From Candidatus Bipolaricaulota bacterium (GTDB taxonomy: Bacteria; Bipolaricaulota; Bipolaricaulia; RBG-16-55-9; DRXL01): a stretch of 64,000 nt of DNA. How positions within the stretch are numbered: the first letter of the stretch is position 1; the number at the start of each line of letters is the position of its first letter. The DNA is taken from positions 94,844 through 158,843 of the forward strand of contig CALLJK010000009.1 of assembly GCA_938091745.1 (NCBI GenBank), read 5' to 3'. A program made the translations under genes and the position numbers. The notes under the pieces are model-generated. The model had not been told where the DNA came from. It was given only the letters and a program-made list of their open reading frames with translations, and did no database searches. Shown here piece after piece: positions 10,697 through 14,410 of the stretch.

Positions 10697-13600
10697 ATGC
10701 CCCATCGAGAAGACTTTTATACAAAACTAAAGCAATCGTTATTAGAAGTACGTATCCCTCATCCTCAAGGAGGTCAACCACTCACTTATGTTAAGTACCT
10801 TGCCCTTCCTGAAGAGGTGCGAGGGGATGATGAGCGGGACATTGTGGATCGCATCTTGACCCCCAGGATTCTAATGTGCCTAGGTTATACCGAAGGAGAT
10901 TGGTACTACAATCGTGCAAAAGGGGAACGGCGCCCAGATTTTATTGTGAAACCTTTAGGCAAGACCGCATTTTTCTGGGAGAACAAACGTACTTTGCTCC
11001 CTCTTGATCCTGAAAGCAAGCAGACTCGCAGTTACACCGAATCCGTTGCTCAAGTGGGTATTCTCTTCAATGGCAACACTCTCATCGCCTTTCGATGCGA
11101 CCGGGAAGCTTTGTCAGTTTTCCTTCAAGTGAACCTGTTAGAAGCGTATGAAGAATTTGGCGTTCGTGTTTTGGATTTTGTGCGTGAAGAACAAAAACAA
11201 CAACTGGAGCTCTTCTATGAGCTTTTCAGAAAAGAGCGTTTTACCGCCTTTGATGAGAGACTAAAGGCCCTGCTAGTCAATGAAGAGACGTGGAGGAGAG
11301 AAGCTCGTCCGATTAAGACTCATCTAGAGACATTTATTAATGAAGTCCAGGGAATTATCGAGCGGCTTGCTCTTATGGCTCACACGGACTTGAGCTTCCA
11401 TCTGCAAAGGACCGAAGAACTAGAAGGGAAGCTTCATAGATTACAGGAAACTTGGCAGAAGCGGCTGGAGAAAGCCAAGCGGGGAGTTCCGTCTTCGGCT
11501 GACCCTGAGGCGTTCATTAAGCAAGGGCAAAATCTTGCCCTTAGGCTGGGCACGCTCAAAGACGAAGAGCTACAAGAACTAGCTGGCGTTCTGAGACCGC
11601 GCGCAACATGGAGGAGCTTGCTGGAGGATCTACGAAGTATTAATGATGAAGCTCGTGGCCTACGGATCGAGTGTGAGTTTAGTCAAGCTGTTCAAAATCG
11701 TTATGCTCGTTGGATAGAGCTTCAGCGACGTTTCGAGGAAGGCTCTGGTATCACCGAAGAGGGGAAGGAAGAACAAGAGCTACAGTTTAACAGAAAGAAA
11801 CGCTTCGCTCGTCAATGTGCTTATGTCTTCTTTCTCAAGCTGTTGCTCGTTCGCATTCTTGAAGATAAAGAGATTGTCAAGCCCCGACTCATTTCTGATG
11901 GGGGATTAGAAGCCTGGATTACAACAGTACGCCCTCGCTATACTGCTCAAGAGGAACAGTTTGCTGCTGCTCACCTGTTGCGAATGGCGCTGGAGCGCGC
12001 GGGCGGCCACTATGGGGAAATTCTCCAGCGAGAAGTTTATGATTGGTTCATGCCGCCTAGCGAACTCTCGATACTAGATGTTTTGGAAACCTTAGCTGCT
12101 TATAATTTCTCAGATCTCTCGACAGATCTGATCGGCTATACTTATCAACGATTCTTGGAACGGACTGAGCGCCATCGTCTTGGTCATTATCTTACACCGC
12201 CAGAAGTAGTAGACTACATACTAGATGAGGCAGGCTACGTATCAAATAAGCGCGACATTATTGGCAAGAAAGTTCTAGACCCGGCATGTGGCAGTGGCTC
12301 GTTTCTTGTCCATGCGGCCTATCGCTATCGGCAAGCGTTAGAGAGCTTCTATCACGAGCAATACGGAGACCCAGAAGAAGCTCGACTCAAATTGGCTCAG
12401 GATTTTGTGCAAAGCATTCAAGAGCATTTCGTGGGCATGGACCTTAATCCCTTCTCATGTTACTTGGCACGCATCAACTTGCTCATCCAGGCTTTGGACG
12501 ATTACCACTTCCTGCAGAGTCGCGGGTATGAAGTAGCCATTAAGGGCTTCAAGATCTATAACACTGATAGCTTGGTGGACTACACTCAAGGGGCCAACTT
12601 ACTTGAGAAGATCAATGAGTACACTGTTCGCTACCTAAAAGTTAAAGAAGCGGGTAAGTTTGGCTTCGTCTTTGCTAATCCCCCTTATATTACACCTAAG
12701 CAGGAGGACGTTGGTATAGCAACGCTGCGAGATAATCCTTTCTACGAGAGCTGGCTCTCTGGTGATATCAACACGTATATCTTCTTCATTCGAGTTGGAA
12801 TTCATTTTCTCTCTGCAGGTGGCCGCCTAGCGTACATCATCCCTCTAACAAGCTTAGGAGATCAGCAATCGGAGGCTTTAAGGCGCAAGCTCCTAAGCCT
12901 GACGAAGCCTCTTGCAATCACTCGTTTTTACACCGAACACGTGCTCTTTAAGGGAGTTCAACAAGCTATCATAGTCCTTGTCTTAGAAAAAGATACTACA
13001 GAAGCTAAAGATGCTCTAGAAGTTCGAGTTCGCGGTGGTGGGTATGGCCAGACACCTGAGGAAGCCATTCAAGATACACGGAATAGAGCAATCTTAGGTA
13101 TTTCGTTCAAGAACTTGAGCTGGTGGATTTCTAAGGCCAACAAACCCCGTCGTGGCTTGAAAGCACCGAATCAACGCGACCCTTGGGAAAATGTTTGGGT
13201 TATCTTCCCAGAGAATGGAGACTATTACCGACTCTGGGAGCACATGGTCAGCATCTCTTCAAGGACTCTATACAAGCTGCTCGAGGAGCTTGGCCTGAAA
13301 CCGCCTGAAGAGTTCATCTCCCAAGGAGATGTCAATACAACTCATGTCAGGCCCTTTCATGTGCCAGCAGATCATCCGCAGGCTATGCCGCTTTACAAGG
13401 GGGAGATCATCGAGCTCCTCATGCCACTGCCCTATCCACCAGAACGTGGGCCTCGAGGACGATCTCCATTTGTGGCTCCTGCTGTGGATAATGAACCTAC
13501 TAGCGAACAAAGAAGAGCTTTAACTCAACTTGAAAGAATTGCTCAATTAAAGCAAGCCGAGAGTGGGCTTATCCTCCATGAGACAGCTAATGTACGCTTA

Positions 13601-14410
13601 TGGAGGCGTATCAAAGGAACTCTATTTCGCAGGGATAAAAAGTTTAAGCCGGTCTTTACTCATAAACTATGGGTATTTCGTTTCCCTAGTATAGACTGGA
13701 CATTAGCAACGTTAGGTCTCTTAGTATCTGCTCCTCTCAATTTCGCGTATGCGGCACTCTCTACAAATAATTCCATTGCTACGAGATTGCTCTTTTGCCT
13801 GCCAGTACCGGACCAGTTCGATAGAGTTGCTCACCAGATACAACAGTATGTAGAGAATGCTCTAAAAGCTGGCGAGAGACTTCAAAACATAGTCAAAGAT
13901 TTCCAGGGCACGCTCAACATTGAAGCAAGCTATCTTAAGGGAACCATTGAGCTTGATCCTATCACTCTACTACAAAAAGAGCGATTAGCAGAGGCTAAAA
14001 TCGAGCACTACCAACAACGCGGCCATATCGAGCTGAGCACAGAGAATTTCAGAGTCCAGACTCTTTGGAAGAGAGGGAAGAGAGGAAATCTGAGGGTTAA
14101 GAAAGAACCAACTCATCTACAAGATGTTGTGCAGCTCTGGGTTGAGCGTTATGGTGATTGCCGATGGAACGAGTTTAAAGAGCTTCCCGTACCAGATGAT
14201 CCCAATGTATTTTGGAAGAAATGGATAGAAAAATCCAAAGAAGCTCAAAACTATCTCCAAGATTACTTTAACGCGATAACGTCTATAGACGAAGCAGTAG
14301 CCGACTGGTACGAGATACCTGACAACCTAAGATACTTACTGCGAGAGAGGCTGCCTTGGAATCATGGTGCTGATAAAGATGCTGATCAAGAAGAGGACTC
14401 TGAACCATGA
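10697..14410 (+). CDS. type IIG/IIL-like restriction-modification fusion enzyme (PD-(D/E)xK nuclease-like N-terminus, gamma-class N6-adenine DNA methyltransferase and C-terminal specificity region)
   Basis: 1237 aa. N-terminal RPDFIVKP..FWENKR (PD..ExK-like). MTase motifs GHYLTPPEVVDYIL, VLDPACGSGSFLVHA (motif I) and FVFANPPYI (motif IV). The gene is markedly AT-richer than its flanks. No hsdS/hsdR or BREX partner genes nearby. Confidence 0.65.
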   Translation: MPHREDFYTKLKQSLLEVRIPHPQGGQPLTYVKYLALPEEVRGDDERDIVDRILTPRILMCLGYTEGDWYYNRAKGERRPDFIVKPLGKTAFFWENKRTLLPLDPESKQTRSYTESVAQVGILFNGNTLIAFRCDREALSVFLQVNLLEAYEEFGVRVLDFVREEQKQQLELFYELFRKERFTAFDERLKALLVNEETWRREARPIKTHLETFINEVQGIIERLALMAHTDLSFHLQRTEELEGKLHRLQETWQKRLEKAKRGVPSSADPEAFIKQGQNLALRLGTLKDEELQELAGVLRPRATWRSLLEDLRSINDEARGLRIECEFSQAVQNRYARWIELQRRFEEGSGITEEGKEEQELQFNRKKRFARQCAYVFFLKLLLVRILEDKEIVKPRLISDGGLEAWITTVRPRYTAQEEQFAAAHLLRMALERAGGHYGEILQREVYDWFMPPSELSILDVLETLAAYNFSDLSTDLIGYTYQRFLERTERHRLGHYLTPPEVVDYILDEAGYVSNKRDIIGKKVLDPACGSGSFLVHAAYRYRQALESFYHEQYGDPEEARLKLAQDFVQSIQEHFVGMDLNPFSCYLARINLLIQALDDYHFLQSRGYEVAIKGFKIYNTDSLVDYTQGANLLEKINEYTVRYLKVKEAGKFGFVFANPPYITPKQEDVGIATLRDNPFYESWLSGDINTYIFFIRVGIHFLSAGGRLAYIIPLTSLGDQQSEALRRKLLSLTKPLAITRFYTEHVLFKGVQQAIIVLVLEKDTTEAKDALEVRVRGGGYGQTPEEAIQDTRNRAILGISFKNLSWWISKANKPRRGLKAPNQRDPWENVWVIFPENGDYYRLWEHMVSISSRTLYKLLEELGLKPPEEFISQGDVNTTHVRPFHVPADHPQAMPLYKGEIIELLMPLPYPPERGPRGRSPFVAPAVDNEPTSEQRRALTQLERIAQLKQAESGLILHETANVRLWRRIKGTLFRRDKKFKPVFTHKLWVFRFPSIDWTLATLGLLVSAPLNFAYAALSTNNSIATRLLFCLPVPDQFDRVAHQIQQYVENALKAGERLQNIVKDFQGTLNIEASYLKGTIELDPITLLQKERLAEAKIEHYQQRGHIELSTENFRVQTLWKRGKRGNLRVKKEPTHLQDVVQLWVERYGDCRWNEFKELPVPDDPNVFWKKWIEKSKEAQNYLQDYFNAITSIDEAVADWYEIPDNLRYLLRERLPWNHGADKDADQEEDSEP

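Follow-up and report, generated by a model that had tools for sequence, protein, structure and literature searches.

A probable single-chain type IIG-like restriction-modification enzyme in a variable slot of a purine biosynthesis operon of Candidatus Bipolaricaulota

A stretch of 64,000 nucleotides (nt) from a Candidatus Bipolaricaulota genome (contig CALLJK010000009.1; the whole stretch is referred to as the window) encodes, between a HAD hydrolase gene and purD, a protein of 1237 amino acids (aa) in which a nuclease-like region, a methyltransferase (MTase) and a recognition region follow one another in a single chain. This gene, called X here (positions 10697 to 14410, plus strand, ATG start), probably specifies a stand-alone restriction-modification (R-M) enzyme of type IIG-like organisation, carried as cargo in a swap-prone slot. 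We infer its activities, its role in defence, the geometry of its cleavage and its route of recombination from the comparisons described below.

Domain organisation of the protein encoded by gene X

An earlier note made from the sequence alone had given the extent and length of this open reading frame (ORF) and quoted four motifs, RPDFIVKP (aa 79-86), FWENKR (aa 93-98), DPACGSGSFLV (aa 528-538) and FANPPYI (aa 659-665), all of which are borne out by the translation. Its proposal that a nuclease, a gamma-class N6-adenine MTase and a recognition region are combined in one chain is supported by domain homologies and folds. As in type IIG enzymes, nuclease and MTase are encoded in one ORF, with the gamma-class motif I upstream of motif IV. 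No helicase or ATPase domain has been detected in X with Pfam, and the SF2 helicase/translocase ATPase module of type I and type ISP enzymes is absent from it.

The N-terminal region (aa 1-160; 10697 to 11176, plus strand) very likely adopts a PD-(D/E)XK nuclease fold of the HsdR_N type, as judged mainly from profile and motif evidence and from Pfam matches of the family. The catalytic motif R79-P-D81 ... E95-N-K97 (nt 10931-10987) is preceded by a conserved acidic helix, DDERDxVD (aa 44-51). The residues R79, D81, E95 and K97 of the motif and D45, E46, D48 and D51 of the helix are invariant in 12 homologues, and among 50 diverse full-length members of the family (20-32% identity) K97 is invariant while D81 and E95 are conserved in at least 90%. 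Of 146 family hits, 129 match a loose regular expression, RPD[FY]-X8-18-E[DN]K, about a dozen of them in other segments, so that the true count is somewhat lower. Compared with the PDB, a profile of the family made from 40 natural fragments of the N-terminus retrieves the HsdR structure 3h1t (E-value 0.007), aligning RpDF over RADY and vvEdK over VVEAK; the next relevant match is McrC (E-value 0.07). When 40 members were searched singly in Pfam, HSDR_N was assigned to 13 (best E-value 1.8e-12), HSDR_N_2 to 12 and PDDEXK_3 to four.

The region that follows (aa ~161-360; 11177 to 11776, plus strand) is predicted to form a long helical hairpin or coiled-coil linker, an extra segment specific to the family, with helices at aa 196-263 and 304-349 and model confidence (pLDDT) of 79-95 over aa 230-330. 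The multiple sequence alignments behind the structure predictions are shallow, comprising 7 and 14 sequences. The NPPY motif is situated at residue 661 in X and at N473 in the characterised enzyme TspGWI, and aa 462-598 of X align with aa 277-428 of MmeI; on these grounds the part of X upstream of the MTase is taken to be longer by about 185-190 residues, for which the hairpin accounts in the predicted structure. The long N-terminal part is also kept in distant members of the family. For the hairpin, a role as a molecular ruler or as a dimerisation arm can be offered as a guess.

The central part of X (11777 to 13021, plus strand) comprises a helical subdomain similar to those of HsdM and PglX (aa ~361-460) and a gamma-class N6-adenine MTase domain (aa ~461-775), assigned from Pfam, PADLOC and PDB comparisons. 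The MTase is the best-conserved part of X. Its motif I, DPACGSG (aa 528-534; nt 12278-12298), and motif IV, NPPY (aa 661-664; nt 12677-12688), are invariant in the family, and N6-adenine methylation is predicted from these intact motifs. The Pfam matches of X are confined to this domain (aa 475-772) and include N6_Mtase (5e-16), Eco57I (2e-15) and MmeI_Mtase (8e-9, 35.4 bits), whereas Pfam matches nothing in the first 460 or the last 467 aa even at an E-value of 10 or less; NCBIfam and PADLOC likewise assign nothing to the N- or C-terminal regions. The best PADLOC model, REase_MTase_IIG (3.8e-27), covers the MTase core only. The PglX profile aligns to X from aa 367, and the NCBIfam scores, restricted to the MTase, are far below the cut-offs (49.7 against 400 for PglX, 69 against 720 for MAD2). 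Sequence matches of the region in the PDB are CamA, M.TaqI, HsdM and MmeI.

The C-terminal 463 aa (aa 776-1237; 13022 to 14407, plus strand) are predicted to form a DNA target-recognition domain (TRD) module, so that X would carry a recognition domain of its own with no separate S subunit, as type IIG enzymes do. The earlier note had suggested such a domain here; the TRD fold agrees with it, while the length after the MTase is about 463 aa and not about 500. In the module the TRD is followed by a long helix (aa ~1042-1068), which a small alpha/beta subdomain separates from a second long helix (aa ~1169-1204); the chain ends in an acidic tail. Fold comparison gave figures of 11.9 for CamA, 11.8 for M.BseCI, 10.5 for PglX and 10.1 for both BpuSI and MmeI, and lower ones for S.BsaXI (8.6), PacII S (7.4), HsdS subunits (5.8-6.9), M.TaqI (5.9) and LlaBIII (4.2).

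The gene looks intact and under purifying selection in every domain. The ratios of nonsynonymous to synonymous substitution (dN/dS, Nei-Gojobori) between X and its orthologue in the related locus L001 are 0.22 for the nuclease, 0.30 for the helical region, 0.10 for the MTase and 0.13 for the TRD and C-terminus. A search for phase-variation tracts in X yielded no homopolymer longer than 5 nt.

The slot between the HAD hydrolase gene and purD

The order of genes in this part of the window is PfkB (minus strand), purH, HAD hydrolase, X, purD and RtcB, followed by an oligopeptide ABC transporter, and X lies within the same-strand string purH-HAD-X-purD-rtcB. Its stop codon overlaps the start codon of purD in the sequence ATGA (14407-14410, plus strand), which confirms the placement and the 4-nt overlap given in the earlier note. 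The overlap is not conserved, the two genes being separated by 38 nt in L001 and by 3 nt in L002. Among the ten genes flanking X there is no hsdR or hsdS, BREX gene, helicase or second methylase, in keeping with the claim that X has no such partner. X was also rightly described as richer in AT than its flanks, with a GC content of 0.467 and a GC content at third codon positions (GC3) of 0.446, against 0.54-0.60 and 0.61-0.77 in the ten neighbouring genes.

A block consisting of a further HAD gene (HAD0), a formyltransferase-like gene, PfkB (minus strand), purH, HAD, the slot, purD and RtcB is kept in nine loci, and the content of the slot differs among them. X occupies it in the window, in L001 (81% identical to X of the window) and in L002 (68% identical). 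In L009 and L011 the slot is empty, with about 40-50 nt that contain a common spacer sequence. An RHH-like antitoxin followed by a PIN-domain toxin gene is found in L010 (7129-7996) and L014 (7187-7949). L008 has the same arrangement of antitoxin ORF and PIN gene together with additional cargo (6332-8004) that comprises a 473-aa protein with faint similarity to Apea-like HEPN domains (E-value 0.005) and an 89-aa DUF4926 protein. L012 has an antitoxin remnant and a 285-aa protein without an assigned family. The GC content of all the slot cargo is low, at 0.41-0.51, compared with 0.57 in the remainder of each locus.

The HAD ORF of the window itself retains a trace of an earlier occupant. Its residues 237-272 (10540 to 10650, plus strand) continue the HAD reading frame beyond its 3' end and consist of the last ~31 codons of an RHH antitoxin with a short extension. 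By BLASTP, aa 237-267 of this ORF are 65% identical (E-value 3e-12) to aa 53-83 of the 83-aa ORF that L008 has at this junction (5545-5796), an ORF which in turn matches the Pfam family 56B_RHH with an E-value of 2.5e-5 and 24.6 bits, under the cut-off of 27.2 bits. The neighbour that had been called a HAD hydrolase is thus a HAD protein, as stated, but fused to the end of an antitoxin. Since the same fusion occurs in the window, L001 and L002, a single ancestral event common to the three genomes is taken to have put X in place of the PIN gene and most of the antitoxin. The HAD-purD junction is a recurrent hotspot for cargo with a toxin-antitoxin predecessor.

The presence of X is patchy relative to the relatedness of the hosts. 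L002, which has X, and L011, in which the slot is empty, are 97% identical in purH and purD together, and the window is sister to L008 with its toxin-antitoxin pair and other cargo. The breakpoints lie in the last ~10 codons of HAD on the left and at the ATG of purD on the right. The simplest route would be for the slot alleles to be exchanged whole, by homologous recombination in the conserved flanks. The horizontal insertion into the pur operon proposed in the earlier note is upheld as regards foreign composition and absence from the site in close relatives, L009 and L011 among them, in which the synteny of the operon could be compared; the site was, however, not pristine nor the event recent, the slot being recurrent and formerly occupied by an RHH-PIN pair. 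A housekeeping gene or an orphan methylase, the readings against which that proposal had been set, would be conserved here in all relatives with host-like codon usage and would lack nuclease homology; we found nuclease homology, absence from some relatives and a codon composition that is not host-like.

The insertion is old, shared and recombining and is not a fresh arrival, because it is common to three genomes whose flanking genes have diverged by 0.55-1.3 synonymous substitutions per site (dS). Between the window and L001 (8001-11714) the flanking housekeeping genes differ at a proportion of synonymous sites (pS) of 0.39-0.57 (dS 0.55-1.05). Codons ~90-650 of X, with a pS of 0.07-0.24, are well under these flanks, and the chassis made up of nuclease core, helical region and MTase has therefore been exchanged recently, after the lineages of the window and L001 split. 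In codons 660-780 pS is ~0.4. Codons 780-1237 reach a pS of 0.5-0.9, at or above the flanks and near saturation, with the corresponding nonsynonymous proportion (pN) up to 0.34. The pattern indicates that the recognition half derives from more distant alleles, through intragenic recombination and TRD swapping. Such a mosaic is what would be expected if TRD swapping diversifies specificity, and the enzymes of the window and L001 are predicted to recognise different sequences.

Expression signals belonging to X may be present at 10625 to 10691 on the plus strand. They include a possible sigma-70-like promoter, TTGAAG-17-TAGAAT (10625-10653), which is weak, with 9 of 12 consensus matches and no enrichment over shuffled sequences, and a Shine-Dalgarno-like GTGAGGT (10685-10691) that ends 5 nt upstream of the ATG. 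No terminator-like site was found on the plus strand between X and purD. A search for direct or inverted repeats and an integrase around X revealed just short, chance-level repeats within the gene.

Other variable segments have been observed in the same block and in the window. In L001 a toxin-antitoxin pair of HEPN and MNT-type nucleotidyltransferase (3930-4609) is situated between the formyltransferase-like gene and PfkB, two genes that overlap directly in the window; this junction is a second small variable slot of the block. RtcB of L010 (10256-13225) has an interruption of ~1.5 kb, which separates residues ~105 and ~97-481 in the alignment; an intein or inserted element may account for it. 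The window also contains a second low-GC block (47356-57521; GC 0.44-0.50 against ~0.56 elsewhere), a type I CRISPR-Cas locus with two Cas6, a Cas8-like CXXC protein, Cas7 (DevR/Csa2), Cas5, Cas3 (HD and helicase), Cas4 and Cas1.

The protein family and its relation to known systems

A word-indexed search of 5.8 billion proteins retrieved only 17 relatives of X, of which 12 have the full length of 1220-1237 aa, with 40-83% identity over the whole protein. An exhaustive HMMER search with the N-terminal 370 aa against 1.84 billion cluster representatives identified 155 clusters at an E-value of 1e-3 or less; fragments aside, most are 1140-1340 aa long with the nuclease domain at the N-terminus. 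In seven distant full-length members examined the N6_Mtase/Eco57I domain is central in all seven, beginning only at aa 471-578. A further word-indexed search using a 50-sequence alignment found no additional members, and viral contigs in IMG/VR gave matches to the MTase domain but no full-length family member. By their shared length and domain order, X and these relatives make up a coherent, though rare, family of proteins of ~1200 aa.

The genes of the family are found alone in at least five different contexts. Relatives at 65-67% identity (L003 and L004) stand alone in other housekeeping contexts, and those at 40-43% adjoin AbiEii together with a serine recombinase and a relaxase, or McrBC, or are situated near a SIR2-STAND gene. 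In L001 to L007 the genes on either side of the family gene include none of the BREX, MADS, helicase or specificity type. Three plasmids of Thermus thermophilus/aquaticus (L088 4078-8573, L089 4015-8525 and L090 1934-6442) encode a member of 1206-1216 aa directly behind parA-parB; on two of them the parB stop and the start of the member overlap, and on the third the start follows 3 nt after the stop. The hhalign comparison of the nuclease domain of one of these plasmid members gave 99.6%.

The host, as judged from the flanking genes, is Candidatus Bipolaricaulota (Acetothermia), with purD 75-90% and RtcB up to 96% identical to metagenome-assembled genomes of the phylum. An archaeal origin, considered because one homologue is labelled 'Thermofilaceae archaeon', was rejected on the 75-96% identity of the flanking purD, purH and RtcB to Candidatus Bipolaricaulota genomes. 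Two records 86% identical to X (P0006 and P0171; NCBI MEM3138462.1 and MEM2057999.1) are filed under 'Thermofilaceae / Thermoproteota archaeon' and come from contigs of 3-4.5 kb with little besides the gene. They are probably a mis-binned low-GC bacterial gene, with cross-domain transfer as a possible alternative.

The closest characterised architecture is that of the bifunctional type IIS/IIC/IIG enzymes of Thermus (TspGWI, TaqII, TspDTI, Tth111II/TthHB27I and TsoI). TspGWI, described as a 'streamlined half of a type I enzyme', begins with an HsdR-like PD-(D/E)XK domain (D58, E72, K74); after it come a helical domain like that of HsdM, the MTase with its motifs DPAVGTG and NPPY, and a presumed TRD at the C-terminus. 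Its activities can be separated, and mutation of D58, E72, K74 or N473 abolishes one or other of them (PMC2700111). X is likewise a single chain with these domains in the same order and no ATPase. The spacing D-X13-E-X-K, with 14 residues from D to E, is identical in TspGWI and in X (D81/E95/K97) (PMC2700111), and both X and the Thermus enzymes end in a region of ~440-460 aa that has no Pfam family and is the presumed TRD. They differ in size. The Thermus enzymes are ~1100-1150 aa long with NPPY near residue 470; X, with 1237 aa and NPPY at 661, is ~130-140 aa longer, and its NPPY is 188 residues further from the N-terminus, which corresponds to the hairpin. The Thermus plasmid members of the family, at ~1210 aa, are also distinct from the characterised Thermus enzymes of ~1100 aa. 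Similarity to the BpuSI/Eco57I enzymes of type IIG is limited to the MTase core (aa 458-775), and no type IIG model matches the N-terminal ~460 aa or the last 463 aa.

Several observations weigh against the assignment of X as an R-M enzyme acquired as cargo. The likeness to the Thermus enzymes is drawn from their published description and not from a sequence alignment. The N-terminus of the window protein has no Pfam match of its own, the members firmly linked to it give only HSDR_N-type matches below the gathering score (E-values 7.6e-5 to 0.1, in the catalytic region), and the N-terminal structure model is only moderately confident (pLDDT 71). A GC3 of ~0.44-0.48 persists in X of the window, L001, L002 and L004 (hosts 0.61-0.77) despite long residence, with no amelioration. 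Literature searches for a characterised member of the family or a link to a Thermus methylome found nothing specific, and no family member has a known activity, methylated motif or cleavage pattern.

X might instead be chiefly a DNA methyltransferase, orphan or epigenetic, with a nuclease-like domain that has lost its activity or taken on another task such as DNA binding. Many genomic type IIG genes are methylase-only in practice, the homologues of X are without exception annotated as 'N-6 DNA methylase', X is situated in a housekeeping operon without a partner, and the MTase is its most conserved part. We consider this unlikely, as the catalytic D, E and K are kept across the family down to ~20% identity with purifying selection on the nuclease, relatives of X are encoded in defence islands, and the patchy occurrence among near-identical hosts and the foreign composition would be unexpected for a housekeeping regulator.

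A shade less probable still is membership of the MmeI (type IIL) family, which would imply methylation of one strand and cleavage ~20/18 nt away. The earlier note had called X MmeI-like, and the description holds only for the single-chain architecture and the fold. The Pfam families it had proposed for comparison gave matches to N6_Mtase and Eco57I and none to MmeI_N; MmeI_hel, MmeI_TRD and MmeI_C are also undetected in X, even at an E-value of 10 or less, and the same domains separate it from DrdV. N6_Mtase and Eco57I outscore MmeI_Mtase, in the PDB the family profile finds MmeI at an E-value of just 0.0026 and through the MTase alone, the nuclease is linked to HSDR_N, and X has ~185 extra residues ahead of the MTase relative to MmeI. 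CamA, M.BseCI, PglX and BpuSI fit the TRD as well as MmeI or better. The suggestion that X is some 300 aa longer than MmeI (919 aa) and may be a distinct family stands, the difference being 318 aa and the family distinct.

Least probable is that X forms part of a larger multi-gene system (of BREX/PglX, MADS or type I/ISP kind) with distant partners, or of a ParAB-linked plasmid-maintenance module: the MTase matches to PglX and MAD2 and the abutting or overlapping of family genes with parA-parB on the Thermus plasmids would suit it, but those matches fall far short of the cut-offs and cover the MTase only, brxA/B/C, pglZ and brxL are missing from the neighbourhood of X and other partner genes from the window and L001 to L007, the family gene occurs by itself in many contexts, and PglX has no nuclease domain whereas X has one.

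Proposed mode of action and significance

As a single-chain R-M enzyme, X would read a specific, probably asymmetric DNA sequence through its C-terminal module. The central gamma-class domain would use S-adenosylmethionine to methylate an adenine (N6) of that site on host DNA, and the N-terminal HsdR-type domain, carried on the long helical arm, would cut unmethylated invading DNA at a fixed distance with no ATP-driven translocation. The gene would have displaced the RHH-PIN pair, and homologous recombination in the conserved flanks would carry it between related genomes, with the recognition half swapped independently of the catalytic chassis and the specificity probably altered in consequence.

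We advance more tentatively, and regard as doubtful though better placed than the alternatives above, the suggestion that the ~190-residue hairpin, kept in this rare ~1200-aa family, sets apart a subclass of single-chain R-M enzymes with a mechanism of its own. The coiled-coil arm might, for instance, act as a long ruler or as an obligatory dimerisation device and lead to an unusual cut distance or to two-site or two-sided cleavage. As part of the same suggestion, the placement after parA-parB on the Thermus plasmids may point to a function in maintaining the plasmid, by post-segregational killing, beyond phage defence alone.

These observations do not overturn current understanding, as type IIG families and defence hotspots turn up regularly. 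If X is active, it would offer a first look at an uncharacterised family of single-chain R-M enzymes represented in Bipolaricaulota, on Thermus plasmids and in metagenomes; new recognition specificities would be possible, some perhaps thermostable, and the helical arm could alter the cut distance. The locus is a clean natural example of one slot in an essential operon that has received successive selfish or defence cargo, namely a toxin-antitoxin pair, other genes and an R-M gene, and it also illustrates the exchange of cargo through conserved flanks and the swapping of a recognition half independently of its chassis.

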